Source of the DNA: Eledone cirrhosa
Lineage: Eukaryota
NCBI GenBank assembly: GCA_964016885.1
Contig: OZ024743.1
Coordinates: forward strand, 262,942,001 to 263,006,000
Length of the DNA: 64,000 nucleotides
Direction: 5' to 3'
Shown here piece by piece: positions 6,493 to 60,303 of this stretch. The first letter of the stretch is position 1; each line of letters begins with the position of its first letter. Made by a program: the position numbers and the translations under genes. The notes under the pieces were generated by a model, which did not search any database, was not told where the DNA came from, and saw only the letters and a program-made list of their open reading frames with translations.

Positions 6493-6550
6493 AGTTGGAT
6501 TTGCTGCAGAATTAATTGCAAGATGGGTTGGTGAAAGAACGGATATTCAG
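6493..6550 (+). CDS. TUSC3: TUSC3/MAGT1-like (OST3/OST6 family) exon, end of the thioredoxin-like luminal domain: (R)VGFAAELIARWVGERTDIQ
   Basis: tattatag acceptor and CAG|gtaaat donor. The peptide resembles the family motif RIGFAAEQLAKWIADRTDV and ends in phase 0, in frame with the next exon. The symbol is family-level: TUSC3 vs MAGT1 cannot be resolved for an invertebrate co-orthologue. Confidence 0.88.
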
Positions 6551-10272: not shown

Positions 10273-10413
10273 ATTCGAGTATTCCGTCCACCCAATTACT
10301 CTGGAACCTTGGCTGTTGCGTTACTTTTTTCTCTCGTTGGTGGTCTGTTATATTTAAAAAGAAATAATTTAGACTTTTTGTATAACAAAACATCATGGGG
10401 AATTGGAGCTATG
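10273..10413 (+). CDS. TUSC3: TUSC3/MAGT1-like exon ('5', 141 nt): [47 protein letters not shown] (TM1)
   Basis: Polypyrimidine tract plus aag acceptor, ATG|gtaagt donor, phase 0-0. Near-identical to the family [11 protein letters not shown]...VGGLLYL.RNNL motif. Confidence 0.96.
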
Positions 10414-12467: not shown

Positions 12468-12557
12468 ATCATTATATTTGCAATGACATCAGGTCAGATG
12501 TGGAATCATATCCGAGGACCTCCATTCATGCATAGAAATCCACACACAGGTCAAATG
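12468..12557 (+). CDS. TUSC3: TUSC3/MAGT1-like exon ('6', 90 nt): [30 protein letters not shown]
   Basis: tctttttctctttccag acceptor and ATG|gtaaga U2 donor. Carries the [12 protein letters not shown] signature of the OST3/OST6 family. Confidence 0.97.
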
Positions 12558-31512: not shown

Positions 31513-32647
31513 ATATATATATATATATATATATTATTAGCACAGATTAAAGTTTAAGCAAAGAAACGCTGCTTTCACCCTATTACAGGATCTTCCGATA
31601 TATATATATATAATGTGCATACAGCTATGTTTGTGAAGGTCTCTTTTAACATGTTGCTTACTACAACCATTTACCTATTCAACAACAAAAGACCTTGTTG
31701 TCTTAAACTGATTAATATTCCTCCTCTCTTCCTTTCCATCTTAACTATACTTTTATAACTCTGATTCTCTTCTACACACACACACACACACTCACACACT
31801 CACACACACACACACTCTCTCTCTCTTCTTGAGCCTTTTCTCTTCCAGATATACACAATTACTGATTCTTTGCTATTTCCTATCATTTTTTACTGTGTCT
31901 TCATAATTATGGACTAAGGATGAACAAACGTTTTCTTAGTTTTTTTATTCATATATATACGAAGGGGGCCTGACTATGAAATAGACTTGTGAAATCTTGC
32001 ATGCATTAATTTCAACTCTTCTTATTGATAACAGCATTGTTTCTTTTCAGGGTCTATATTGAAAAATTATCCTTGTTTGGTCATTCCATGAGATATCATG
32101 GTCAGCTTATGAACTTTTCAGCTTACCCTTGTACTCTGAAATATATAGTGAAGGCGCATGGTTTAGTGGTTAGAGCATTGGGCTTACAATCATGAGTTTG
32201 TGAGTTCGATTCCAAGACCTGGTGATGCATTGTGACCTTGAGCAAGACACTTTATTTCACTCAACTGTAGAACTGTGTTGTGACATCACTGGTACCAAGC
32301 TGTATTGGCCTTTGCCTTTCCCTTGAACAACATCGGTGACATGGAGAGGGAAGATTGATATGCATGGGTGATTGTTGGTCTCCCACAAACAACCTTACCC
32401 AGACTTGTGCCTCAGAAGGCAAACTTTCTAGGTGCAAATCCCATGGTCATTTATGAGTGAAGTAGGGGTCTTTACTCTTTTATATATATGTATACACACA
32501 CATTCACTTATACAAAGATTTTGTTCCAGTACAGATCAATTTGTTGGATATTTTTAATCAACTTATTTAAATTATTTTTCTCTCTAAATGTAATTTTAGC
32601 TATCAACTGCATTCCTTAAATGAGCCATAAATATTTTTGCATTGCAG

Positions 32648-32711
32648 CATTATATCCATGGTAGCAGTCAGGGCCAGTTTGTAGTGGAGACTTATTTAGT
32701 TATGTGCCTGA
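32648..32711 (+). CDS. TUSC3: TUSC3/MAGT1-like exon '7a' (64 nt, canonical version): HYIHGSSQGQFVVETYLVMCL+A
   Basis: tttttgcattgcag acceptor. Donor GTATCCTTT (32712-32720) is the U12 5' splice-site consensus. Carries the YIHGSSQ.QFV.E motif; phase 0-1. Confidence 0.95.
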
Positions 32712-32720
32712 GTATCCTTT
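32712..32720 (+). promoter_or_regulatory. U12 (minor spliceosome) 5' splice site GTATCCTTT after exon 7a
   Basis: Exact match to the RTATCCTTT consensus at the exon boundary predicted from protein homology. Confidence 0.92.
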
Positions 32721-35700
32721 TTTGTTAAGTTTGTTGATCACCTGTTGCTGACATTAACATTGTGATGATGTTCCTCCTGCTGATAATTACCCTGTTATTA
32801 TATAATTGATGTGTATGTGTGTATCTCTCTTTCTTTCTCTCTTTATATATATATATATATATATATGTGTTATGTATTTTCCTGTCCCACCCAGTCTCTG
32901 ACATATAAAAACCTTTTCTTTTCACTGTAATTTATTGCAAAAGTTTTGTTTTTCTCTAGCTGAAATATTTTCTATGCCACAGACTGCAATGTACATAACC
33001 AGATTTAATACATTTACATTATCATTGTCATTCATTATTATTCCCATTGTTTTATTGTTATTGTTTCTCAATAACAAGCAGTATTTTTTCTGTTAATCTT
33101 TTATTACTTTGGATACAACAGGCAACACATTCAGAGCAAAATATAAGAAGGTGGAGTTGACTTGTCTGAGAAATGTTGTAAATATATGCTAGAGCATGTT
33201 TCACTTTTTATATGGGCCACACCTGATCTAGCAAGCTTGTTTAGGACAGCAATGAGCAAAAGGTCATGATGATATTACAAATTCATCTAAATTTGCAAGC
33301 TTAAGTATAACACAATAACTTTAGCTAACGTTTCAACTCCAGTAGAAGACAAGCCCTATATTAAAATTAAATGGGCCTTAGTCGACTTCATTATAATTAT
33401 ATAACAAAATCCGCCAAGGTTAACTTTGCCTTTCATCCTTACGGGGTCGATAAAATAAAGTACCAGTAATGCACTGGGTAATTGCTGGCCTTGTGCCAAA
33501 AGTAGAAACAATTATAATTATATAACAAAATCCAAGATCAATAAAAGAAATTGCCAATCAAATACTAGGATCAATTTAATGGACTTTCTCTGCTAACCTT
33601 GGGCCAAAATTAGAAAGCAATAATTATATAACAAAATGTTATAATCACACCAAAAAAATGTATTTTGATATATAAAGCCATGGGGCTTAGTGGTTAGGTT
33701 TGATTGTTAATCACTTTGGCATAAAAAATATGCTTGTTGCATAAAATGTTCTATCAATTGTTTTGATTGAAAACCATCATTCCTTTATTGAAATTATTAT
33801 TACCGTTATTTTATTATTATTATTAAGGGCGGTGGATTGGCAGTATCGGTAGAGCATCGGACACCCTGTTTCGCGGCAGAGAGTTATGGCCCTTTACGCT
33901 CTGAGTTCAAATCCTACCGAGGTTAGCTTTGCCTTTCATCCTTACGGGGGTCGATAAAATTAAGTACTGGGGTCGATTTAATTGACTTTCCCCTCCCCAA
34001 AAATTGCTGGCCTTGTGCCTATAGTAGAAATCATTATCATTATTATTGTTGTTGTTGTTCAAATACTGCCATGGATAGCTTTGCCTTTCATTCTTTCAGG
34101 GTCAATAAAATAAAGTGCCAGTAATGAACTGGAGTCGATTTAATCGATTCCTGTCCCCATAAATTGTTGGCCTTGTGCCTAAATCAGAAACTATTATTAT
34201 GTTGTTGTTGTTTTTATTATTATTATTATTATTATTATTAGTTTTCATATTATTATTGTTATATAAACAGGATGATGATGAATTCTATTTACTAAAAAAA
34301 AAAATCTTTCAAAGTTTTATTGATATATTGACATTTCTTATTTGTATTTTGTTTTCTTGAAATATGTTGGAAATAGCATGGATTCATTATTTTCACTTTT
34401 ATATTTTGCCAACTAGTCAATTTTTTTTTCATTTGCGGAAACAAAGGGAAAGCTATTTGAGTATCATCTCTATTATCATGATTATTATCTCGGGTCAGTT
34501 GGTGTGGATATTTCAGTCTCCTCTTCTCACACCATTGTACAGTTTCTATAAATGAAGTCTGATTTATACTTCAGTAATATCCACAGTAGAACCTGGTTGA
34601 AGGTACACATGTGTGCTTGTGTTTGTTTGTTTGTTTGTTTGTGTGTGTGTGTGTGTGTGTAAAGATATATATATTGTATATCTGTCAGTTGTATTTGAAA
34701 CTGGTGGAGCTCAAGTGTATTGTGCTCTCACTCTTAACAGCAATTCCTGGCTTAGATGCTGCAAGAAATTCTTCAGCTGACATGCGTTGTAAGGAAAAAG
34801 CTTACGAACCATTATGTGTACGACTCCAGGGTGGGTTATCATCATTGTCCTCTAATTGGATACTGTCATCACCATTATCATCACCATTATCATCGTCTCA
34901 TGTAATTTATTATCAGTGTGAATATATTAAATTAAATGACATTAAAACATGGTGTATTGTGCAGACAGATTATATTCTGATAGTGCTAAATTTTTCAGGT
35001 TAATCTGAAAGTTGATTTACTGATTTAAGAGAGAGTGTATAACAGTTGTTATGTGCTATGGAATTCATGTTACATTTTGTATATTTGCTTTTTAATCCTT
35101 ATTTGATTTGAAAATTGAAGATACGTCATTAAATCTGCACATAATTGAAAAAACAAAAAACACTTTAGCATAGATATCACATAATGTTATCAATCATGTC
35201 ACCACTCTTCTACTCTTTGATTGATTTTATTGGCTAGAGCTTGCATGTTTTACTCTTGTAGAATTAGCATGCATTGTCTTTTGTTCATGTTGAATGGTTC
35301 TTAACATATAAATAAATAGTTGGATGTCTTTATTACACACACACACACACAAACAAACACAGTCTGCTAGCTTCTGCCTGTACTGAAATTAGTTTTTCTT
35401 TCAAAGACATACTTCTTCCAAGACCAACAAATTGACTCATCTGAAATTGTGAATTCTTTTTCTTATTTTTCTGTTACTACTATTATCATAATTGTGGTAT
35501 GTTGAAAGTTTTTCTTCCAATTCACCCACTTCCACAGTTGACCAATTTAGTAGAGAGAAGGAAATATAAAAAAATACCTGTTACTTTTTATTTTTTCCTT
35601 ACACCACCATCTACTCTCTTCTAGTACAAGCTTCTTCACTATTTCTTTTGTACTTATTTTCTTTTATTTGTCATCAGTTTAGATATTTCAGTTGTAACTT

Positions 35701-36477
35701 TATGTAATAAATTGTCTACAGACAGAAAGTATATTTTTATGTTGTAAAATCTTGTCAAAACATGTTACTTAAAGTTTCAAATAAATACAAATGGGGAATA
35801 TGTAATGCATTGGTGTTAAAATGAAATAATACAGTCACTGAGCTTGAAATCATCATACATATCTTGACTATCCATCACATATGATGGAAGTGGCATCTTT
35901 TTTGTCTGCAGAGAACTCTGGGATAAAAGTTACAGTATAAAGGAAATGACTCTGGGTAAATTAGCCAACATGAGTGTCCATTGTAAAATGTTTCCTTTCT
36001 TATGACATCTGGAAACACTGTGTATAAAATAAAAATAATCAAAATGAAATAAATTAATTTAAATCAAATTACATTTAACAAGAAAAAAAATTACTGGTAA
36101 AGTGACAAAATGATATTGCCAGGTGTAACTAACATTAGATTATAAGCTGTTCAAACAAAAAATGTCAGGACAAGGGGCACATCCCTTTACCATAGACCCT
36201 CATATCAGCTAATCCCTCTTGAGCCATCTTTCCTTACCCCAGAGTTCTCCATGAACAGAAAAAGTCACGTCTATCACATATATTGACAGATAGTCAAGAT
36301 ATGTCCAGCAATTTTATGCTTAGTGGCAGTCCTGCATTATTCCAAAATTATTACATTGAGTTCATCTGAAATTTTAAGTAACATGTGTTGACAAGGTTAT
36401 ACACTGAAAATATGAAAAAAACTATTTTAGTTTTTATAATATTGTGTGCCTTTCTTTGTTATGACACTTGTTCAAAT

Positions 36478-36513
<36 letters not shown>

Positions 36514-37139
36514 TCTGTAATTCTTTAAAATATCCATCTATATAATTTTTTTTTGCTGAAATAAATGTTTGGATTTAAGAATCCTTTGTTCACTCATCTC
36601 CTCCATCAATAATAGAATTAGTATTGTTTGAGAGAGAAAAAAGTTTGTTTTCTTGATTGTTTACATAATTGATTCTAGTCTCAACTCTCTATTTTTTCTA
36701 CTTTTACTTTCACTTTCAATGGTTATGCTGCTTTTTTTTTTTCTTCTTTTCCTCTCTAATATCTTAGCATTGAAATAGATTCTGATCTCCTTCACTCACT
36801 TTTTTGTTGATTTTTTTTTGCTTGGTTTCACTATTATATATTGATCTGATATTTTAATTTATTTGTATATGGCTTCTTGCTGATGTTTACTATTTATTTC
36901 TCCATACAAAGGGGATGTAAAGGGGGGTATTATCTATGGTATTTAAAAAAAATACCCCTCCTTTATTTACTCCCTCACTCTTCTTGTTCTTCTCTTTTTC
37001 TGTCCCCCACCCTCGCATGTATTAACTTTTTACCCAATCTTCTGTTTTGGCACATTTTAGATATTGTTTTTATCATATCTCATCGTTGATATTTTTGTAT
37101 ATTGAAACCTTTCTTTGTTGAATTTCTTTTATTTTTCAG

Positions 37140-37203
37140 CAGTTCATCATTCCATCATTTGAACTGCAGTTTGTTGCTGAGTCATATATTGTGTTTTTTA
37201 ACT
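37140..37203 (+). CDS. TUSC3: Duplicated alternative exon '7b' (64 nt): QFIIPSFELQFVAESYIVFFN+T, putatively mutually exclusive with 7a
   Basis: Long polypyrimidine tract plus cag acceptor (CAGCAG tandem). Same length and phases (0-1) as 7a. QFVAESYIV aligns gap-free with QFVVETYLV. Donor GTATCTTTT (37204-37212) is U12-like with one mismatch. No transcript evidence is available. Confidence 0.8.
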
Positions 37204-37212
37204 GTATCTTTT
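37204..37212 (+). promoter_or_regulatory. U12-like 5' splice site GTATCTTTT after exon 7b
   Basis: One mismatch (+6 C>T) from the U12 consensus, a poor match to U2 GTRAGT, and the same position relative to the exon as in 7a. Confidence 0.75.
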
Positions 37213-39182
37213 CAGTTGCTCTCTTTTGTCTTTTGATTTTTTTTCTGTTTTTTTTTTGTTTTTTTTTTCTGCCTCAGCTCAAACCTCTCCTATACTGCAC
37301 CCCCCCCCCCCCCCCCCCTCACCATTTTATTTTGTTATCAAAAACTTAAATTTCTGTCTTCAGGTATCCTCACTGTCTTTTACTGTTCTTATGACATTCA
37401 ACTTATATATCCATCATTCTTTGCAATTATTATTATTTTGATTATTATTATTAGAGCAGTGGATTGGCAGTATCGGTAGGACATCGGATAACATGCTTTG
37501 TGGCATATATTTACGATCATTTACATTTTAAATTCAGATCTTGCCGAGGTTAGCTTTGTTTTTCATCCTTTCAGGGTCAATAAAATAAAGTACCAGTAAT
37601 GCACTGAGGTTGATTTAACTGTCTTTTCCCATCCCCTAAAATTGTTGGCCTTATGCCTAAATCAGAAACCATCATTATTATTATTGGCATGCTTTGACGT
37701 ATAGAGTTACGGCCCTTGCCATTCTGAGTTCAAATCCCGCCGAGGTTAACTTTGCCTTTCATCCTTACGGGGTCGATAAAATAAAGTACCAGTAATGCAC
37801 TGGGTAATTGCTGGCCTTGTGCCTAACGTAGAAACAATTATTATTATTATTGGCAATGAGTTAACAAAATCGTTAGAGCATTGGTCAAATATCTTCTAGT
37901 ATTTCTTCCAGCTATTTATATTCTAAGTTGAAATGCTGCCAGGATCAACTTTGTTTTTCATCCTTCTGGGGGTACTGGATGTGAAATAAAGTACATGCCA
38001 AGGACTGGGGTCAATTTAATCGCTCCCACCTCCTTCCATGTGTCTAAATTCGAAATCATTTTTATTTTTATTAGGTAGTGGATTGGCAGAATCATGAGGT
38101 AGTGCTGGTTCCATGATGAAAAGCACCAAACCCACTCTGTAAAGTTGTGTTGGTGCCATGATGAAAAGCTCCCAGTGCACCCTGTGAGATGGTAGTGCTG
38201 GTGTCATGACAAAAAGCAACCAGTGCACCTTGTAAGGTGGCATAGCTGGAGTCATAATAAAATGCTTCCAATACGTGCTCTAATGGGGTTGGCATTAGGA
38301 ATAGCATTCAACCATAGAAACCAAGCCAAAATGGAGTTTACGAGCAGGACATGGTCACCTCACCAGTCTAGCCTCAGCATGTGACAACCTGTTTAACCAA
38401 ATGGTGATTATGATTATGATGGTGATTAGAGTATTGGACAAAATACCTTGCAGTTTTTGTTTGTGCTCTTTATGTTCTAAGTCCTGCCACAATTTAATTG
38501 ACTAGCTCCTCCCCATTTCTGGGTTTGTGTCTATGTTAGAAATTATTGTTATTGAGTGGTAAAAGTATTAGCATGCCTAGCCAAATGCCCTATGGTGTGA
38601 AGTTATTCTGTTTACATTCTGTGTTTAAATCCTGGTACCTTATTAAATCAACTCTGGAAGGATGGAAGGTAAAGTTAATTTCAGTAGGATTTGAACTCAG
38701 AATGAATGTTAAATGTTGTAACTAAATATGTTTCGATATTTTGTTTGATGCTCCAATGATTTTGGCAATCCACTACACTAATAATAATAATGGGTTCTAC
38801 TTTTGGCACAAGGCCAGCAATTACCCAGTGCATTACTGGTACTTTATTTTATCGACTCCGTAAGGATGAAAGGCAAAGTTAACCTCGGCGGGATTTGAAC
38901 TCAGAATGGCAAGAGCCGTAACTCTATGCGTCAAAGCATGGCGTCCGACCCTCTACCAATACTGCCAAAATAATGATTTCATTTATTGGTCACAATGATA
39001 ATAATAATAGCAACAACATAATCTTTGTTTAGGTTCCTATGAATGATTATTTCAGTCTGTTGCCTGTATTTTGTTTGCCATGCCTCCAAATATGAAGTAA
39101 TTGTTTGGTTATCTCTTTCTTCTTCTCTCTCTCCTCTTTCCTTCTATCACTCTTTCTCTATTTCTCTCTCTGTATATGTGTG

Positions 39183-39220
<38 letters not shown>

Positions 39221-40313
39221 TTCTTTTTTCTCAACTTGATAATACAAAATAGTGAGAAGGTAACTTAGGCTTAAGTGTAGTAGATCAGTTTCCAAAAGCC
39301 AAGAAGTGTTTTACACCCATAATGTATATTCAGCATTTCTGTTAGGCCTTTTAAAAGCTTTGAGAATTTGAGTAAATACACCTATATTGAGAGTATATTT
39401 CTGTTTATTTTATCCTCACCCATTTTTTTCTGTGAGTTTTTGAAACAAACTAAAATGAAGCTGCATCATATTCAGTTTTTGATTTTGTTATCTTCCTGAT
39501 GTCTAATTGTTATTGGCAATAGAGTATACATAGTTCCATTTTAGGAACTAATTTTGGACCTGTGACATGGTTCTATGGCTAGACACACTTCTTACCACTA
39601 ACCATTTTCCACAGTGGTCCCTAGCACTAGAGGTGTTGTTAGTGTCCACAACAAAGACAAAAGAGTCCTCTTTACCCTACATTGTCCCATGTCACCTACA
39701 CTTGAGGGATTGTTTTGTTCCTTACTAGGCTAAAGGATCTTTTTCACTTGATGTAGTCGTCATTGTTCTAAGGCAAACGTGATTGAAAGTTCCAAGTAAA
39801 TCCTTCTCATATTTAAATTAGAATTTTCACTGGAATCTAATTACATGATACTGTGATGTTTCAATGAGTTAAACTACCTTCAGAGTTACGTAAAAGAACT
39901 TTTAGTATTACCGATAAGTATTATTTAGTTAGTTTACTAGAAACCCCTTCTAAATTCTTGGTTATTTAAAAAAATTATTGAAAGTCACTTAAGCAGTCTT
40001 TTCTTGTTTAGAAACTGGTTTATGATAGGGTTAGAGATATATATTTTGAATAGACATTGGTTATTCTAGATATATACAATTTACTTAAAATTGCACATAT
40101 GCATCATCATCATTATATGTATGTGTGAATATGTATGTATTATACATATATATGCATATGTGTGTGTGAAGTGTTTTTCCATTGAAATTATTATGTTTGT
40201 CTGTTAACATTGGAATTAACCTTTTCATTACCATATTGTTAATAAAATACATTGCTTGAGATTTTTGGAGGGATTTGTTAAAATAACTAACTTTTTCATT
40301 ATTAAACTGGTGA

Positions 40314-41906
40314 TTAACCCCTTGCCCCTCTAACTATGAGTATAGTTGTGACATTAAATTGTCAATGAAAGTCAAAGCACGCTGTCAATCATTTGTTTAC
40401 ATTTGACATTCGTAGTTGAATCACGAATATAGGCATTGTACGAGAGGTGATGTAAATGTGATGTAAATGTAAAATACTCAGTGGTTAGATGAATTAGGAA
40501 ACTATTTTTAGTTTTAACCAATCAGAGAATGTTTTATAAATAAATTTTGAATATAAGAGTATGTTGCAAATAATTATTCCCTTTTTGAGAGAGACAGAGT
40601 GACATGTTTTTATATCGAGCATATATATCAACAAATATGGCATCAGAAAGTGAAAATGATGTTGATAGATTCAGAAGAAATCTTGGGCCAGTAAATATTT
40701 TAGATTTTGAGAACAAAGAGCTAGATTTTTTTCTTTCAAATATTTAATAAGCATTTGTTCAATAAGCTGGTGGTTGGAACAAACAAATATTCTGAAATAA
40801 AAGGCCCTGATCAAAAATGGCGAAACACAACTGCGTTGGAAATGAGGGCCTATATTGTGTTTCAGATAGTGATGGAAGTTGTTTCTGTCCCTATTCAGGA
40901 CATGTATTTTTTAAAAGATAATTCATTCTGGTCGACAGGGAGGAGGGAATTGTTTACAAGGGCCAGACTGGACAAACTGAACCAGTATTTCCATATTCCA
41001 AATGTCACCCAGAATCCAGCATGTGGTCAGGTTCATTCTGAACCTGACCCATCAACTTATTGGGGACTATTCCTATAAAAGGAGAGTGCCTTTGGAAGAA
41101 ATTCCCCAGGTTCAAGGTGCTATGCACTGGCCTTGTAGACTTAGGGGAAAAGATAATTTGCAAGCAGTGTTCCAAACAAAATATTAGAAGGGAACCAAAA
41201 ACAGCTTGTGAGCAATGCAAGGTAAATCTCTGTATTAACTGTTTCAAGCCCTATTATCTGGAACATTTCCCTTAAAGGTATGTGTATGTTGATACTTACA
41301 GGTAATTTTTTTTTTTTTCATGTTTTTGCTTACATTTTATTATATTAAATTGGTGCATCCATAGTTTGCATTTGGGGCAGAGGATGGAATTTCTACCTAC
41401 ACCTTTCCTACATACTGAGCAGGGCCATTTCCCTAAGGGGGATCTGGGTTCTATAATATATATATATATATTATAAAGAGTCGGGACCCCGATGGTTGAG
41501 CTCTTGCTGACTCTTTTTAATATAACCATACTCTACTATCCCAAGTATTGAGTACTCTATAATGACATTTTTTGGAATATCCTTTAGAAAATTCACTTTT
41601 GAATTTTCACTGAAAATGTCATGCTATCTTAATAATTTATAAACTTAGAGCAATTTTGGTATGGTCATGTTAAAAAACTATCGATTATCACAATTTTGAT
41701 TAGGGAGGTAGTGTCAAAACAAAAGGAGGTTAGTGTCAAATACTAAGGGAAATAACCATATATGAACACAAGTACAACAAGGGAAAAATTATAACATAGA
41801 TTAACTAATTTCCCTATAAAAGTGATGGAAGGTTTTTAGATAAATAAATAGCTTTGCACTAGAGAATCGTGTGCAATTACAGGTGACTTAGTATTAAAAG
41901 AGTTAA
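40314..41906 (+). mobile_element. Internally deleted piggyBac-like DNA transposon relic
   Basis: TTAA-CCC start and GAG-TTAA end. N-terminal transposase motifs (TNKY...W...T..EMRAYI...R.R.DKLNQYFH) abut a C-terminal Cys-rich domain (CKQC...CEQCKVNLC..CF), with no DDD catalytic region. A short antisense RTE fragment is inserted at about 41352-41450. Confidence 0.8.
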
Positions 41907-42439
41907 ATTATATGAATTATTTTTCACTTTCCAAAAATAATGACTGCTGTGTGTTACTTGATTGCAAAACTATTATTTCTAATTGCATACTTGTCATCAA
42001 CATTTACTTCAAATCATTATTTAACACAATATGTAACATGATATGTCTATACAATTCTATAGTTATTGGTGTGGTGTTGCATGTACAGAAGCTTTTCTTT
42101 TGTATTGAAATGAAATACCATTGATAAGGAAATTGGCTAATTAAGGATATTGCTAAATGCTTTTATGGCAGATATAAACAGGCATGGGCCTACAGTTTAG
42201 AAGGTTCTTAGTCACATTGTTTTATTTTAATTTCAGTTCTGTTACTTGTAAATACATCTTGTACACTGCACATACATGTATATACTCATAACCTATTCAT
42301 AGATCATATATGCTTATATATGATTGCTAAAATACTTAATGAACATATATATATATAAGCTGAGCTCTTGTTGTTTCAACAGCTAATTACTCTACTATCT
42401 CAAGTATCGAGTGTTCTTCTGAATAATGGTCTTACTAAT

Positions 42440-42665
42440 TTAACGCTTTAGCATTCACATTACTCTATATATACTATTATATTTTCATGGTAAAGGCTTT
42501 ACCTCGCATAATTATCTCACATAATATCGAATCTATGAGATTTTGACAGTATTTATTTTGAGAACAATACCTTAACATCAGTTTGAGCGACCAGTTACAG
42601 CCAGTTTCAACAGACAGGTAGAGAATTCTGGCCAGTTTTGGCCGGTTTGAACATTAAAGAGTTAA
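42440..42665. mobile_element. TTAA-flanked MITE (piggyBac-type); second copy at about 63731-63954
   Basis: TTAA-CGCTTTAGCATTCA...TGAACATTAAAGAG-TTAA. The internal sequence is clearly shared between the two copies. Confidence 0.75.
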
Positions 42666-45600
42666 AACTTGTAAAATCCTAATCTATCTATCTGTCTTTC
42701 TATCTCGCTCTCTCTCTATATATACAATTCTATCAGGCGTTAATGTCCATAATATATATAACCTAAGCTAGTGTGGAAAAGTGGATGTTAAATGATGATG
42801 ATGGGTGTGTGTGTGTATGTATATGTATATATATGTTTCTGTAGTTAAATAGTTTGCTTTGTAGCCACACGCCTTCAGGTTCAGGACCACTGTATGATGC
42901 CACAATTGTCTTCCATGAAAGCTTGCTGTTAAACAATGCTTTGCAAGTGAAATGTGGAAGCCCATTGTATATGTGTGTATGAGTATGTCTTTGTTTGCAT
43001 TTACTGTTTCTTTATGTTCTGTAACTTAGCAGTTTGGCAAGACAGGATTGATAAAAATAAGTACTAGACTTGAAAAAATATGTACTGAGGTTGATATGAT
43101 TGACTAAATACCCTACAGCTAGTGCCCCAGTATGACCACTGTCTAATGATGAAACAAATAAAATAATAATTATAAATACACACATTATATGACTTTATAT
43201 CTTGTGGCAAATGCTCTAAGGATTGAAACTAAAGTGTTTTATTGGATGGATGGACTTATTTCTGTGTTAAATTTTAGTTTTTCACTCATCATTCCAAGAT
43301 TGCTGAGTTACCCAATTCTATGTCCATGTAAGTTTCCTGGTGAATTCTATGTCCATGTAAGTTTCCTGGTGATATACGATGATTGGACTTTTGTGCTTCA
43401 TTGGCATGTATTTATTTGTTCATGGAAACTGGCAAGTTTTTCTTGTAACATCAAGCCAGAATCTTTTGCTGGCTTCATAGATTTTCTATTTAATGGATGT
43501 AAAATGTAGAATTCTCAATCACCTGTCTTGCTATCAAATACTGTTACTTTTCAAATGTTACTTTTGTATCATCTGTGATATCTTTTCTCTGTGATCCTGA
43601 TACTGTAAAATCTTTTTCTTTTCCATTGTCGGTAGGGTCACTTTCTTTTTACAGACATTTTAACAGTGACAAATACAATTACTAGTAACTGATATATATT
43701 CAGAGCAAAGCCATTGAGTGAATGGAAACACCACTGATATTATCATGTCTTTATCCCTTTCATGGTTGTATTTCAGTTAATTAATGAAGAATTTTGAGGG
43801 TTATCACTCTCTCTTCTGGAGACAGATGGGTACCTACACATATGTTACTATGGTGCCCTTCTATCAGGAGTTACATGTCTATAATATATACATGCATGTC
43901 AACATATGATTCTTTTATGAAATTACATTGGAAATTTTTAATTCAAATAACATCCCTTTAAAATGGGTGGTTTTGTTCCATAGATACAAAGTCAGTTTTG
44001 AGTGGGTTGGTATCAAAAGGGTTAAATCTTTCAGCATATTGCTCATTTTTCTGTTGAAATTATTTTAATACTGTTTATAGTGATTGACTGACATCAAACT
44101 AGTGGACTGACCAACTCATGGGACTTTGGATAACCATTAGCAAAGTATGTAATCAATGTTAATAACGCCACTTTGATGTACCATTTTTACATGTTCCTCG
44201 GAAATTCAAATTCGCTTTTAATTAGTGGAAACAAAAGACAAAATCGTAGCACTAGTATTATTGTAGAGTTCAAGATACACACACTGTAGATAACTGAATT
44301 TTAATGAGACCATGAGATCTTGTTTGGATAATCCGAAATTCAAATAATTGAAGTTTGGATATTGGAATTACAGAAAATAGATGTTTGACTGTATATACAT
44401 GTTTGTGTATTTATATATATGGATCTATTTATGTTTGTGTATGCATGTATGTGTACAAAATGTTTTTGTGCATGTGCTGTATTACTATTGTATCTGTTTT
44501 AAGTGTGATTTACACATTTCCAAGACATGATTGCCAAAATTATTCACTTCCATTTATTTACTAATTTTCCCAAATCAGTGCTATTTATTGCTGTGTTTGA
44601 TGTATGACAGCACTTTTGAGTTGATCATTAGATTTCCTAGCTCTGTGGTGGTAGTAGTAGTAGTAGTAGCAGCAGCAGTAGCAACACTAATATTAGCAGC
44701 AACAGTAGTAGTAGCAGTAGTAACAGTACTAGCTGGTGGTGCTCAACTGTCATATCTGAGTAGTTGTTTCTCCTACTGGTAGTCAATCATATCAGTATGG
44801 CTTCTGTTTTTCCACATTGAACGTCAGATAGTGTGGAAGATTTTATTTTCCTTTATATGAGTTATTAGTAGCTGTACCCGACTTTGCTCAGGTTTATTAA
44901 TACTTAAAACAATACAAGCACATGGAATTTACTATAATTTGGATGATTTGCTTTAAAAAGTAGCTGACAATCTTTAGTAGGTTTGGGAATATTGATTCAC
45001 TCAGAATTGTTTCATCCAAGCAGTTGACAAAAATGCACAAAATATCAACAAACAAATATAGAACTTAAAATATCTTACTATTATGTATTATAATTTTCCT
45101 CTCACTGTCGTTGATTGCCTCTGAAGTTAACTATTTACACAATAGTCTTTGTGTTTTCCCTTCCTGAAATTGGTTGGCTCTGGGACTATGTTGTTGCTCA
45201 GATGATTAACTTTGAACTGCATTGTGGCCCAGTCTGCTGCTTTCAAAACTCGTACTGTCACACACCTTGTTTTCTTTTGGAGACATAATGTCACTCAGCT
45301 GGTTGCCTATGTTCTTCTGTTACCATCTTATTGATTCCAAGGTGCTAACAATTCTACCACACCTCTCTCCCATCTCTGCTGTGCTGTAGTTTATATTCTA
45401 CTGTATACTCAACTAGTCTATATAGGCATTTGTCAGCTACCTCCTATTAGCTGTCTGGTGACTTTATTGTAAACCCTAATCGTAAAAAGAGGTGGCAAAT
45501 TGGCAGAGTCGTTAGAACATCGGATAGAATGCTTTGTATTCATTCTGGCTCTCTGCACCCTGAGTTCAAATCCTACCAAGGTCAACTTTGCTTTTCATCC

Positions 45601-46168
45601 TTTCAAGGTCAATAAAAAAGTACCAATCCAATACTAGGGTTGATTCTTCCTCTACATCTCTGTCACTACCTCTCATTCTCTGGAAGAAATCAGCTGTTTT
45701 CAGACTTGGAGAGGAGATGGGCTTGCCAGGTTTTAACAGTTCCCAGGAAATGGGTTAAAGATTAAGAATAGTAAAAAATGAAAAAAAAAAAAGATTTCAT
45801 GGTGAAATACAAAAGAAAGATTAGCTATGAAATGATTTAATGACACTATTTTTCATAGATATAGAAATGATTTAAAGAAGCATTATTTCATTACAGGATA
45901 TTGCATTATATACTGTTGCTTTGAAGATGCAGTATTGTTTCTGCATTATTATTGTAACTGTTTCTTGTTTTGTTTTTTCTTTAAATTCATAATAATTACC
46001 CAAACTCTCATCAGCTATTTGTCTGTGTAAATTGATCTGTGCCAGATCACTTGCTTTTTTGATTTAAAGAAGTAGCTTTCTATACTTTTGAGTATTATAT
46101 AAGTAGGAATTTTCATGAGATATTGCGTGTGTGTATATGTATGTGCGTGTGTGTGTAGAAGCAGAAGC

Positions 46169-46292
46169 TTCTCCAATTAAAAAATATAATCCCTAATATC
46201 CAGATTCACATAATTCCCTATGAAGAGTGCATACTCTTCATAGGGAATTATGTGAATCTGGATATTAGGGATTATATTTTTTAATTGGAGAA
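46169..46292. repeat. Perfect palindrome, 60-bp arms, 4-nt loop (GCAT)
   Basis: 46169-46228 is the reverse complement of 46233-46292. Confidence 0.95.
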
Positions 46293-46591
46293 AGGGTAGT
46301 GTTGTTAAAAATTATTATAGTTTGAAGTATCTGAATTTTTTTTGGATTTTGTGCTTGCAGGATATTATTAGTTCTTGTCTTTTATTAATAGATTCATTCG
46401 AAATTTTATTTAATGATGATTTGATATTGTTAAGTTTACATTTATTAATAGCTTCCACTAATGAAGTCATATTCACCAATTTACTGTGTTTAAATGAGTG
46501 TGAATGAAAATAAAATCGTTTTTTGAAAGAAATAGCTGCTGCTCCTTTATAAGTCTGTGTACTGTTTTTCATAATGAGTTAACATTGATAT

Positions 46592-47075
46592 ACTGGGATG
46601 AGCTGATAAACTCCGACCTCACACACTTACACCTCTCCAAGACAATGTCACTGGACCGAGACCTTTGGCGGTACTCAGTAACAGAGAAGACCCGCCTTGC
46701 CAGTAGGCATCTCTAACAAAATACACCCCGTCCCGCCACCACCCCCACCCCATCCACACCACCCCGTTCTATGTAAAGTTATGTTGGTGCCGCGCCATCC
46801 AGGCCGAAACAAATGAGATCGTGTAGGTGTCACGACAAAAAAACACACAGTCCACGCTGTAATGTGGCCGTGTAGGCAACACGGTAAAAGCCTCCCAGAC
46901 CCACACTGTAAATGTGGTTGGTGTTAGGAAGGGCATCCAACTGTAGAAAACCTGCCAGACAGTCCTATGCGAGCAAGACAATCACTCTTGCCTCAAGTGG
47001 GACTACCCCCGTCCAAACCCATGCAAGCGTGGAACACGGACGTTAAACGTTGATGATGATGATAATGATGATGAT
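46592..47075 (+). mobile_element. RTE LINE 3' end (same subfamily as 16375-16882); shorter 3' ends at about 51157-51462 and 52863-53148
   Basis: WDELINSDLTHLHLSKTMSLDRDLWR, the 3' UTR and a (GAT)n tail. Confidence 0.9.
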
Positions 47076-47122
47076 ACTACGCTGTTAATTAAACAATTTC
47101 CCTTAAGCGGGCAGTTTATATA

Positions 47123-47189
<67 letters not shown>

Positions 47190-47882
47190 ATATATATATA
47201 TATATATATGGAAATGACTTCTACAAGACTAGAACAGTTTCATTCGTATAATTTCATACAAATAAAACAGTTCTTGTCCTTTAGAAGTTTATATATAATA
47301 AATATGCCTACTGAGTATTTTTTTTAAATGTTGTTACTTTCCCGACACTATTCGGGAATATATATATATATATTACTAAAATGAATGAAGATGCCATGTC
47401 TGAGAAATTACAGACATGCGCCATATTGCCTGTAATGAAAGCTCAAGGATGAATTCCGTGAATTCCGAGTTCTTTATACAAATTCAAGAGTGAATGACAT
47501 ATATAGAAATATATCAAACAACTATTATCTCCTGTGTATTGTTTAAGTGGAGGCATGTGGCCTAGTGATAAGGGTGTTGGACTTACGATCATTATGTCAT
47601 GGGTTTGATTCCTGGGCTGAGTTGCATGTTGTGTTCTTGAGCAAAACACTTCATTTCACATTGCTCTAGTTTACTCAGCTGTAAATGAGTACCAGCAATA
47701 GCTGGCGGTTTAACCCTGCGATGGATTGGCATCCTGTCCAGGGAAATCTTGTACTCTGTTGTTTCACGCCATGAAACCAGGATAAGCACCAGTCTAATGA
47801 GCCTTCTGGCTTAAAATAGTCTTTTAGACTTAGACTGTATTGTTTGATATATTTCTATATATGTCATTATCTCTTGAATTTA

Positions 47883-47942
<60 letters not shown>

Positions 47943-49212
47943 ACATGCAAGCACACACATATATATATGTATGAATACTATTGAATTGCATAGTAATTTC
48001 ATCTTTAGAATCACCAAAGATAGTAAACTATTTCTGATGCTTCAAAAGATGAAATTGTAGTTAAATAGCATTCTCAAATTTATTCAATGTTATCCTTCAT
48101 TTACTTAATTATTACTCTACTTCTAGTATTGAATACTTTTAAATCATTGTTGGTTGCCTGTATATTGTACAATTATATATATATATATATATATATAAAT
48201 ATATATGTATGTATCTATTTACTTATATAAATATATATGTGTGTATGTGTATATATAAAATGAAGAGAACCAAGGTTTTCAAATTAAATCCATTTTTAAT
48301 ATCTACAATCATTTCTATACAGGTGAAAGCTTACATGCAAATGTAAATGAGTCAATCAGAAACAATTAACAATTATTTACACATTACACAAATACCTGGA
48401 TATCATAGGAATATAAAAAGGGTTTGAATTTAACCAAATACATATATCTAGAACATAGGCATTATCAAATGTTGAATATAGGCAAACATTTGAAGAACAC
48501 AAGCAAAGCAGGGTAGAAGTATAAAGTGCTAAATAAGATGACAAAGTCATTGGTGTTAGTAAAATAACACACAGACAAAGAAGCAAAATAGCCCTGAGGC
48601 CACAAAAGTAATTAGTGTTTGCATTAATAGATATGCAATAAATAGCTAATAACATACTTATTACTATTATTCAGGTTCCTCATTCCAATGTAAAGGAAGA
48701 TCAGAAGTAGAAAATATAATACACATTGATAATAGCAGGCATTCTGAGTTATTATATATTTATATATATATAATAATAATAATAATAATAGTAACAAAAT
48801 TAAGCTATTGAATAGGACCGACACAGCTTCGGTCGTTTTCTCATTCAATAATTTAATTAAATCTGTATTAATAAGATACAAACCCAAGAAAATTAGTGTG
48901 CGCACTTATATGTTAATTAGGGAGAAAAATGATTTTGTGTGGGTAGAAAATTTGATTTTCTGGCTTCAGACCAATGCATTAGTTTCTGTGACTCCATCTA
49001 TCTATATATATATAGGCCAGAGATGCAGATCCCTGGCCTGTCTGGGAGATCAGTAGCCCTGCTTCAGTACTAACTTAGGTAGATCTGTCCAATCTTGCTA
49101 GCAGGGCAAGTGGACATTAAGACAATAAGATGATATATAAAAATATAGAAGATATTCAACTTGGGTTCCTTTTATGCAATTCTGACTTCAATAAATTCCA
49201 AAGCTGCATGTT

Positions 49213-49243
<31 letters not shown>

Positions 49244-49793
49244 GTACATATATGCACGTATAACACACACATATATATATATTGTATTACATGATAATGG
49301 AATATTTGTATACAGAGAGAGAATGTCAACTGAAAATTAAGATTGAAACTGAGAAACTTAGTGGTGTAGAGAAGCCTCAGGTTTAGATAAGTGGATATAT
49401 ATATATTCTGTTTACATTGGATGGTTTAACTAATAGGTAGCCGGGTTTGTGATCCAATCATTCCAATTATCAGACTGTGATGCAATAAGCAAAAGCACTC
49501 AACGTTATGCATATCATTCATCATATATATGGTATCATGGTTGGTAGAGGAATGGAATTAAAATACTTCAATGAAAATATAAGAAGGCTAGGTTCCAATA
49601 TTTTCCTGGACTGATGCATAATTACATAATACATATGTAGTTATACAACATCAAAAGAAGATATTTGGAATCCAACATTCTTATATTTTCATTGAAATAT
49701 ATATATATATAATATGCATGCGTGTTCCTTTATCACAATTTTACAACCTTTTTCTTTTTAAGTTTGTTTGTGTAACATTTTCCCTGTGTTAAA

Positions 49794-49811
49794 TCCTTAA
49801 CATTGCCTTAG
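49794..49811 (+). promoter_or_regulatory. U12 branch point TCCTTAAC plus AG acceptor of exon 8
   Basis: TCCTTAAC at 49794-49801 puts the branch A 11-12 nt upstream of the 3' splice site, with no long polypyrimidine tract in between. This is classic GT-AG U12 geometry. Confidence 0.92.
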
Positions 49812-49886
49812 ATGTTGCTGTTGTGATAGGTTTCATTCTACTTAATGAAGCTAATAATTTAAAAGGAGATCCAGGCAAGAAAAGAA
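49812..49886 (+). CDS. TUSC3: TUSC3/MAGT1-like exon '8' (75 nt): (N/Y)VAVVIGFILLNEANNLKGDPGKKR+A
   Basis: U12-type acceptor TCCTTAAC-attgccttAG and A|gtaagt donor; phase 1-1. Matches the family G..LLNEA...KGD.GKRR pattern. Confidence 0.94.
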
Positions 49887-51873
49887 GTAAGTAGAATCCT
49901 CTTTATTTATTCATATTTATTTAGATAGGCAGTATCGGTAGAGAGTCGGACACCATGCCTTGCAGCATAGAGTTACGGCCCTTTATGATCTGTGTTCAAA
50001 TCCTGCTGAGGTTAACTTTGCCTTTCATCCTTACGGGGTCGATAACATAAAGTACCAGTAACGCACTGGGGTCGATTTAATCGACTTTCCCCTCCTCCAA
50101 AATTGCTGGCTTTGTGCTTATATAAGAAACCATTTATTCATATTTATTTAGATAAGAGTTATTTAACAGATGTTCTAGATGAAATATTCGGGATTACTTA
50201 TGTGGGGATTTAACAACATCTCTTTACATTCTAAATTCAAATCTTTCCATGGGTGATTTGCCTTTAAATCTCTAGGGTTGGTAAAATAGTACCAGTTAAG
50301 TATTGCGGTGATATTAATTAACTATTGTTTCCAGACCCACCAAAAAATGTATGACCTTGTGTCAAAGTTAGAAATGATTTTTTTTTATAAACATTAATTT
50401 TAATGTTTGGCATATATAGATATATGTATGAATATACATGCATGTGCGCACACACACGTTTTCAAAATGTTTATTTACTAAACATACCATATATCTTTAG
50501 ATATACAAAATTCACATACATGTATGTATACAACTATGCCGAAGCTAAATTTTAATTCTACTTTTAAGTTGAGCCAACTTATACAGCTTCATATGCAAAT
50601 GAGGTAAACCCGCCCACATGCATAGGTGAAAATACTATATATTTTCGCCTATTTCAAGTTCCAACAGAAAACAAGAGGATGCACTGTACTCATGAGAGCC
50701 GGAAGCTTGAAATGCATTGATAGTTATCCTCCGCTGCTTCTGCTGGAACCTGCTAGATGGCACTGGGTGTCGGCCTTTCAATTCATAGCTGGACTTTCAA
50801 AATGTTTATTTACTAAACATACCGTATATCTTTAGATATACAAAATTCACAGGCATGTATGTATACAGCCATGCCGAAGCTAAATTTTAAATCATCATCA
50901 TCATCGTTTAACGTCCATCTTCCACGCTTGCAATATATATATATATATGTATAAGAAAATGAGGTTTTTTTTTTTTTAAATGAAAAAAATACGAGATGTC
51001 CTACACAAGTGAAAGTATAAGGAAAAGAAATCGAAAATGTAACTGGAGTCTTTTTAAGAATATTTATTTGTTTCCTTTACCAGTTTTACAGTTCTTATGC
51101 TTTTCAAAAGTAGAATTGAGATGGAGGGTTTGTGGTTTTTATATATATATATATATAGGCAACACAGTAAAAACCTCCCAGTCCCACACTGTAAATGTGT
51201 TTGGTATTAGGAAGGGCATCCAGCTGTAGAAAACCCGCCAGACAGTCCACGCTCTAAATGTGGCCGTGTAGGCAACATGGTAAAAACCTCCCAGCCCCAC
51301 ACTGTAAATGTGGTTGGTGTTAGGAAGGGCATCCAGCTGTAGAAAACCCGCCAGACAGTCCTATGCGAGCAAGACAACCACTCTTGCCTCAAGTGGGAAA
51401 ACTCCCGTCCAAACCCATGCAAGCGTGGAACATGGACGTTAAACGATGATGATGATGATGATTTATTTATATGTATGCAAAATGCAAACAAATAACAAAG
51501 CAAATGACACAGTACCATATACTAGTTTTATGCTTGATATAGTAGGAAAAGTGTCTTAATGTTGCAGATGCTAGTCTTTCATGAGAAATTAAAGAAATAG
51601 AAAGATAGATGAGAGTGGGCAGTGGCAGAAACAGAAAAAAAAATTTCTTTGAGAAAAGACAGGTCTATTCAAGTCGCTATCTCTTGGAAAACTGTAGAAT
51701 CTGGCATTGGTGTATAAGAAGTCCAGCTGGTTATGTTTTAAAAGGCGGTGATTAAAGTTGAAAAGGAAAAAAATATTGTTTTGTATACAGAGCATGTAAA
51801 CTGAAGTTTTATGGAGCTTTGTACTAAGAAACATTGATATATATTTTACATGTATTGATTAAACCTCAAATTA

Positions 51874-52472: not shown

Positions 52473-52563
52473 TTATGGCATTGGTAGGAGTTGGCTGTGT
52501 GGCCTTCTTTTTCAGCTTGTTGTTGTCCATTTTCCGTTCCAAGTACCATGGTTATCCTTATAG
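52473..52563 (+). CDS. TUSC3: TUSC3/MAGT1-like exon '9' (91 nt): (I)[29 protein letters not shown]+AG (last TM)
   Basis: ttttattttcag acceptor and AG|gtatgt donor. Carries the [18 protein letters not shown] signature. Confidence 0.97.
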
Positions 52564-60287: not shown

Positions 60288-60303
60288 TTTCCTGTTCAAG
60301 TAA
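60288..60303 (+). CDS. TUSC3: TUSC3/MAGT1-like terminal coding exon: (S)FLFK*
   Basis: ttttatcttttcag|T TTC CTG TTC AAG TAA completes the phase-2 Ser codon and gives the family C-terminus GYPYSFLxK. Several AATAAA follow (about 60395 and 60542-60590). Confidence 0.85.

Follow-up and report, generated by a model that had tools for sequence, protein, structure and literature searches.

The stretch analysed here, a 64,000-nucleotide (nt) window of the Eledone cirrhosa genome (assembly GCA_964016885.1, contig OZ024743.1, positions 262,942,001 to 263,006,000 of the forward strand), carries a gene that, judged by its likeness to known proteins, belongs to the OST3/OST6 (TUSC3/MAGT1) family of oligosaccharyltransferase subunits. 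Two tandem 64-nt exons of this gene, 7a (32648..32711) and 7b (37140..37203), lie between a common upstream exon 6 (12468..12557) and a common downstream exon 8 (49812..49886), all on the + strand. We are almost certain that the pair is real and that its members are used one at a time. The splice signals point to a major (U2-type) intron before the pair and a minor (U12-type) intron after it, a lock of an already known kind, and what is new is the octopod TUSC3/MAGT1 member together with the isoform pairs found in other lineages.

The exon pair, its transcripts and its gene

The two 64-nt exons proposed by the first-pass annotation were both found in place, each with a CAG acceptor and a minor-type donor. 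Their names follow its numbering, which did not hold: six coding exons were found upstream of 7a and the signal-peptide exon was not located, so 7a and 7b are at least the eighth coding exons of the gene. Exon 7a is the family-typical version, agreeing with the canonical segment of most relatives, and 7b is a diverged duplicate. The direct likeness between them is low (30/64 nt and 8/21 amino acids), and although 7b is the top non-self match of 7a in a six-frame scan, it scores 31 against 30 for the runner-up; because this likeness is weak, their homology rests on length, phase, splice signals and transcripts. The motif GTATC[CT]TT occurs at seven sites on the two window strands, and only at the 7a and 7b donors does an AG lie exactly 64 nt upstream, which goes beyond what chance would give. 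The two are homologous tandem exons of equal length and phase, as in the JNK genes. No third copy of exon 7 was found: among 49 donor-like sites between exons 6 and 8, only 7a, 7b and shortened sub-forms of them resemble exon-7 peptides, and peptides of the cuttlefish, bivalve and acorn-worm type matched only 7a, 7b or noise in the window. The reading frame is open to the normal stop at 60303 for both 6-7a-8 and 6-7b-8. As had been claimed, inclusion of both copies or of neither shifts the frame and gives early stops, within 7b for double inclusion (207 nt ahead of the last junction) and within exon 8 for skipping (151 nt ahead of it).

The transcript data consisted of assembled contigs from 7 of 24 listed runs, which differ in organism and for which tissue is not on record; 7a was compared in four of them (X24, X1, X3 and X15; not X8 or X11). 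Exon 7a was covered in all four, and in X1 and X3 it lies inside long contigs. Exon 7b was covered in two of the seven runs, X15 (organism G) and X13 (organism F), which are two organisms from two studies and both relatives of the species analysed here. Each of these runs holds one 122-nt contig that aligns over positions 37139-37203 with 2 and 5 differences of 65 nt, respectively. The 27 loose letters ahead of 7b in these contigs are, in a by-eye comparison, the end of exon 6 (27/27 and 26/27), and the 30 loose letters past it are the start of exon 8 (29/30), so that the contigs read exon 6-7b-exon 8 and have the exact shape of a two-path bubble. In X15, the depth was 78 on 7b versus roughly 71 on 7a, the latter a rough figure from a bin mean, and both were well covered. 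Isoforms with 7a and with 7b are also present in the automatic annotations of Octopus: in a protein cluster of O. vulgaris, O. sinensis and O. bimaculoides, all six members hold exactly one of the exons, three with 7a and three with 7b, and the 7b segment differs by only 1-3 residues among four octopods. Both exons are individually spliced into mRNA (7b in relatives), and annotated isoforms exist for both. Whether 7b might be a dead duplicate had been set beforehand as a test of the proposal; the spliced contigs of X15 and X13, together with the isoforms conserved in three Octopus species, rule this out. A direct 7a to 7b join or skipping of both was not seen in the contigs, which displayed 15 of 573 joints, lose rare forms, and derive from messages from which decay would have removed such products. 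The 7b acceptor is a tandem CAGCAG (37137-37142), and a 61-nt form lacking the first glutamine would stay in frame; only the 64-nt form was seen.

With respect to the gene itself, the OST3/OST6 (TUSC3/MAGT1-like) identity proposed earlier agrees with several lines of sequence comparison. Three matches to Pfam OST3_OST6 (of 12 listed) exceed the cut-off in the genome and all lie in one locus, an Octopus relative aligns to human MAGT1 (chain 6S7T_H) with an E value of 1.4e-134, and the likeness to MAGT1, TUSC3 and Ost3 extends over the full length. A thioredoxin-like domain with its CxxC motif (CTVC in locus L003) is present, and the structural model of a relative, P0121, has four C-terminal helices. 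Other constitutive coding exons, also on the + strand, are 6493..6550, which has a major-type donor and was placed by tblastn with Octopus proteins, exon boundaries and U1 pairing; 10273..10413, which covers the region of transmembrane helix TM1 and whose product is 98% identical to TUSC3-like proteins of Octopus, Argonauta and cuttlefish; 52473..52563, which encodes helix TM4; and 60288..60303, the coding part of the last exon with the stop. At 49813-49818 in exon 8, a valine is encoded here versus alanine or glycine in the Octopus, Argonauta and cuttlefish proteins, and runs X13 and X15 read an alanine codon. A second donor lies 4 nt past the exon 8 donor (49887-49894, GTAA/GTAG), and the frame-shifted C-terminus that it predicts is found in O. 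sinensis isoforms X3 and X4.

Major and minor splice signals

The exon 6 donor, GTAAGA, makes 7 Watson-Crick pairs with U1 and 1 with U11 in a fixed register, in line with its earlier assignment as U2-type. Acceptors of the U2 type had been assigned to both copies, which holds for 7b, where the major acceptor is clear (45/66 C/T in the pyrimidine tract), and in part for 7a, which is not of a clean major type in that its tract is weak (37/66) and the minor-branch-point-like TTCCTTAAA (32612..32620, + strand), with 7/8 pairs to the genome's U12, lies upstream of it. The branch A of this motif is at -30, outside the optimal distance of 11-13 nt for minor branch points (PMC3584512). The heptamer TCCTTAA occurs on the + strand of the window only in the TTCCTTAAA site and in the exon 8 branch point. 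The coding exons upstream of 7a in the gene analysed here do not include one with a minor donor; a cuttlefish gene model has one upstream of its 7a.

The donors of the two copies are of another kind. Exon 7a is followed by the consensus minor donor GTATCCTTT (32712..32720, + strand), which pairs at all six positions from +4 to +9 with the genome's U11 and U6atac, and 7b by the variant GTATCTTTT (37204..37212, + strand), in which a C to T change at +6 leaves a G-U wobble with both RNAs. This bears out the earlier description of U12-type donors with a perfect and a weakened U11 site. Complete U11/U6atac pairing at +4 to +9 was found only for these two donors, 7b with its wobble included, and in the same fixed register five ordinary donors make 7-9 Watson-Crick pairs with U1, versus 4 for 7a and 5 for 7b. 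Free duplex folding of the donors with the ends of the small nuclear RNAs (snRNAs) was uninformative, as exon 6 equalled 7a with U11 in another register, and the fixed-register counts were used instead. The 7a donor 12-mer, TGA/GTATCCTTT, is the listed donor of the TUSC3 minor intron in human and mouse (PMC6717393), and 12-mers of the 7a type score 88-91 in listed minor introns (PMC6717393). By its sequence the 7b donor is a recognised minor variant: GTATCTTT occurs 35 times in the mouse and human minor-intron table (supplement file 1), versus 722 times for GTATCCTT (PMC6717393).

Ahead of exon 8 lies the minor branch point ATCCTTAAC with a TAG acceptor (49793..49811, + strand), as clear as it had been described. 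It makes 7/8 pairs with U12, its branch A at -13 falls inside the 11-13 nt optimum (PMC3584512), and its core TCCTTAAC (49794-49801) is the sole copy of this 8-mer on either strand of the window. Judged by consensus and snRNA pairing, both copies appear to carry minor donors that share this single downstream branch point and acceptor. The intron between the copies (32712..37139, + strand, 4,428 nt) would consequently be a hybrid with a minor donor and a major acceptor, and the best U12 branch match ahead of 7b is 5/8. Within this intron, positions 33400-34160 are an abundant interspersed repeat, to which thousands of contigs match in every run. The organism has a minor spliceosome, as matches to U11 (2), U12 (1) and U6atac (15) exceed the Rfam cut-offs in the genome; U1 genes are present as well. 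The 15 U6atac matches (on C9, C4, C12 and others), against one for U12 and two for U11, are likely mostly pseudogenes, and U1 forms tandem arrays with a period of about 2.67 kb (C2:180973544-180995099 and C1128).

At 37345-37372, 160 nt past the 7b donor, a pyrimidine run and CAG are followed by GTATCCTCAC, i.e. a major-type acceptor abuts a minor-like donor. This site has the shape of a candidate zero-length (recursive) splice site or a spare donor, pairs partially with U1 (6) and U6atac (4), and its region is unique sequence in the genome.

The exchanged segment and its second versions in relatives

To place the exon in the protein, we used a model of the 7b isoform of the relative P0121, built from an 84-row alignment that leans to the ordinary fold (mean predicted local distance difference test score, pLDDT, 76); a single-sequence fold was unusable (pLDDT 42). 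In this model the exon corresponds to residues 259-280. These comprise strand two of the hairpin that follows helix TM2, then a loop, and then the N-terminal half of helix 267-295 (TM3). From the known topology of the family, we take the exon-encoded loop to be luminal. None of the 84 aligned proteins, among them four alternative forms, departs from Q268 or E272, two residues encoded by the exon. The H-G-S-S-Q-G signature is absent from exon 7b, which encodes a more hydrophobic loop, and two of the positions at which it differs from 7a are occupied by F in yeast Ost3. Reviews describe three helices of Ost3 as packed against Stt3, and MAGT1 as a binding partner of STT3B (PMC7226087, PMC10859629). 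The model suggests that the two isoforms differ in the luminal loop and in the initial half of TM3, within a membrane module predicted to face STT3. Yeast complexes with Ost3 or Ost6 differ about fivefold in turnover, and the membrane domain has been proposed as the cause (PMC8191290); by analogy, the swap may alter the output of the oligosaccharyltransferase.

Isoform pairs that differ solely within this 22-residue segment were found in 5 of 30 protein clusters examined (vertebrate clusters lay outside this set), namely those of Octopus, cuttlefish, scallop, mussels, and two species that are likely acorn worms, as one of the versions agrees with P0056 of Saccoglossus. The first-pass annotation had not noted this recurrence in other animal lineages. 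The remaining 25 clusters, comprising gastropods, oysters (with 15 of 20 members listed), other bivalves, amphioxus, chelicerates, sea anemones, a ribbon worm, others, and single-member clusters, showed no such pair, which is a weak negative given annotation gaps. The second version of cuttlefish is a different one and occurs also in two assembly-derived proteins; in one gene model it lies upstream of the ordinary copy, an order that differs from octopus. An N-x-S sequon lies within the predicted luminal loop of this cuttlefish version (P0003, P0005 and P0129), and this isoform might itself be glycosylated. The second versions of scallop (Pecten maximus X2) and mussels (Mytilus trossulus X3, XP_076118153) are two residues shorter and share 10/19 residues.

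The second versions are no closer to one another than to ordinary exons: 7b and the cuttlefish copy share 9-11/21 residues, each shares 9-11/21 with ordinary bivalve exons as well, and the bivalve copy shares 4-5/19 with both. This suggests repeated duplication of the same exon. Because of this mutual distance, and because the exon order differs between octopus and cuttlefish, two origins (in molluscs and in acorn worms) are likely and four are possible; a single old molluscan origin is possible too, the number being beyond the resolution of 19-21 residues, while splice sites and exon order outside the window rest on protein models. A table of 90 'canonical' exons had been chosen by a pattern that fixes positions 2-5 and 7, and is uninformative on conservation there.

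The minor intron itself appears to be ancestral. Among 12 protein models listed, nine read through this donor and continue past the exon with S, R or C and then I-L, which is consistent with GTATCCT; these come from oysters (3), Elysia, an annelid, Saccoglossus, amphioxus, Nematostella and cuttlefish. Of the other three, two lack the following exon and the third is an ordinary form not caught by the pattern. Since human and mouse TUSC3 have the same donor 12-mer and the read-through models include Nematostella, the minor intron is likely older than the bilaterians. A tentative extension, which we think possible but would not bet on, is that this exon is a hot spot, and that octopods, cuttlefish, scallops and mussels, and acorn worms each made a second, tissue-chosen form of the oligosaccharyltransferase helper that alters glycosylation output, by splicing where yeast and vertebrates use two genes. 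On this idea, the position of the exon, with a major intron on one side and the ancestral minor intron on the other, would make every tandem duplicate exclusive from the outset.

Choice between the copies and known systems

We regard as probable a JNK-type lock, backed up by decay, in which selection between the copies takes place at their major acceptors. In this view, tandem duplication of an ancestral exon flanked by a major intron upstream and a minor intron downstream would have given rise to a hybrid intron that is a poor substrate for either spliceosome. By analogy with JNK, the major-acceptor/minor-donor layout likely stops products in which both copies are joined or both are skipped, and nonsense-mediated decay would clear those that leak. 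The choice would mostly fall at the two competing major acceptors, through sample- or tissue-dependent factors as in JNK2, where exon choice is determined by Nova and the pyrimidine tract within the hybrid intron (PMC1874599), and one gene would yield two oligosaccharyltransferase variants of different activity. Counts of Nova-type YCAY motifs close to 7a and 7b were at background level.

Several points weigh against this reading. The contig flanks of 27-30 letters fall short of the 31-letter threshold for a bridge, and 7b was unseen in five of the seven runs (X24, X1, X3, X8 and X11), although its missing from these contigs does not show absence. Among these, X24, the sole compared run of an organism whose other runs hold 97% of the query, gave 7a only. 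Contigs drop rare forms, so that wrong junctions could be missed, and the cuttlefish gene model P0127, which is a model and not a transcript, holds both copies in frame. The stops at 207 and 151 nt are more than 50 nt ahead of the last junction, so decay alone could hide both wrong products. Splicing from a major donor to a minor-intron AG does occur, as in MAPK12 (PMC8329584), and in WDFY1 the same +6 C-to-U change weakened a minor donor, after which major cryptic donors used its AG (PMC1874599). The predicted loop reaches a pLDDT of 55-69 only. The JNK-type layout described by the first-pass annotation holds; its statement that exactly one exon must be chosen is too strong as to skipping, given this documented use of minor-intron AGs by major donors.

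Four other explanations bear on parts of this picture. That the lock works as described, with the isoform ratio set by the level of the minor spliceosome acting on a strong (7a) and a weak (7b) donor, agrees with the change of a G-C into a G-U pair with U11 and U6atac at +6 and with the weakening of the WDFY1 donor by the same change (PMC1874599). However, the near variant ACT/GTATCTTTC in human HARS still scores 83.6, against 88-91 for donors of the 7a type (PMC6717393), 7b has the stronger major acceptor, and the JNK2 choice is made by pyrimidine tract and Nova (PMC1874599), and we consider control by spliceosome level unlikely. Quite unlikely, too, is that 7b acts as an off-switch, spliced in frame but yielding a protein that lacks stability or fails to enter the complex. 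The lost signature and the more hydrophobic loop would fit this, as would the bivalve alternative, which is shorter and still more diverged, but 7b keeps the length, the frame and the invariant Q and E, has changed little between relatives in both nucleotides and residues, and departs from 7a at two positions towards the F of yeast Ost3.

A further alternative is that exclusivity is only apparent: all four products would be spliced, decay would remove the two frameshifted ones, and the minor signals would be inherited bystanders. The stop positions of both wrong products allow this, frame-breaking exons occur in 60% of human clusters of mutually exclusive exons (PMC5740500), and cross-type use of a minor AG acceptor is documented (PMC8329584, PMC1874599). 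Yet the donor of 7a matches the minor type perfectly and makes 4 pairs with U1, 7b lacks a usable minor branch point (5/8), and a JNK hybrid intron of this type 'cannot be properly spliced' (PMC1874599), which makes this decidedly improbable in our view. Enforcement by competing RNA pairings (docker and selector) or by steric hindrance has hardly any claim left. Pairing of the region upstream of 7a with the flank of exon 6 or of exon 8, two of the eight combinations, was slightly better than in all 12 crude shuffles made per pair, but the 7b flanks pair with either region no better than shuffles, which argues against a shared docker, and the 4,428 nt between the exons rule out steric hindrance.

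Recurrent tandem exon duplication is a known theme (PMC3342872), and exclusivity through U2/U12 sites has been published for JNK, TMEM87 and five human clusters (PMC5740500, PMC6717393, PMC3584512, PMC6865273), the latter making up 0.79% of human mutually exclusive exon clusters (PMC5740500). In the open-licence literature searched, we found no exon pair in TUSC3, MAGT1 or OST3 and no such layout in cephalopods; the identity of the five human clusters lay outside the scope of this search. To this handful of exon pairs locked by major and minor introns, the octopod TUSC3/MAGT1 gene adds an invertebrate case with transcript support, and does so in a housekeeping glycosylation gene that we have not found described as alternatively spliced at this exon. 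With recurrence in up to four lineages, a general idea can be put to the test, namely that tandem duplicates are enriched at exons adjoining minor introns, as would be expected because the copies start out exclusive, and the 22-residue stretch is a possible natural tuning site of oligosaccharyltransferase.

The closest known system is formed by exons 6a/6b (7a/7b) of the vertebrate JNK genes MAPK8/9/10, which share with the present pair a duplicated exon, a major intron upstream, a minor intron downstream and a hybrid between (PMC1874599; PMC3584512). There, too, the copy with the stronger pyrimidine tract is the downstream one, and an origin by duplication has been proposed (PMC1874599). The octopod pair differs in gene family and phylum, in that its 64-nt exons shift the frame in both wrong products, in the +6 variant of the downstream donor, and in that the copy with the weaker tract, 7a, is seen in more runs. 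Exons 11/11a of TMEM87A/B likewise have interlocked major and minor sites with one exon per message and tissue-dependent use, but they are frame-neutral exons of 72 nt in mammals and in an unrelated protein (PMC6717393; PMC8329584). Human and mouse TUSC3 and MAGT1 are of the same family and are listed as minor-intron genes (PMC6717393 supplement; PMC7507305), with a single minor intron given for each and no sign of an exon pair in the literature searched; vertebrates have these two paralogous genes, whereas the genome analysed here has one locus over the family cut-off. Yeast Ost3 and Ost6 are, like the two octopod isoforms, interchangeable forms of the same subunit with one per complex (PMC8191290), but they are gene duplicates that differ along their whole length, whereas the octopod isoforms have their thioredoxin-like domain in common and differ in 22 residues only.

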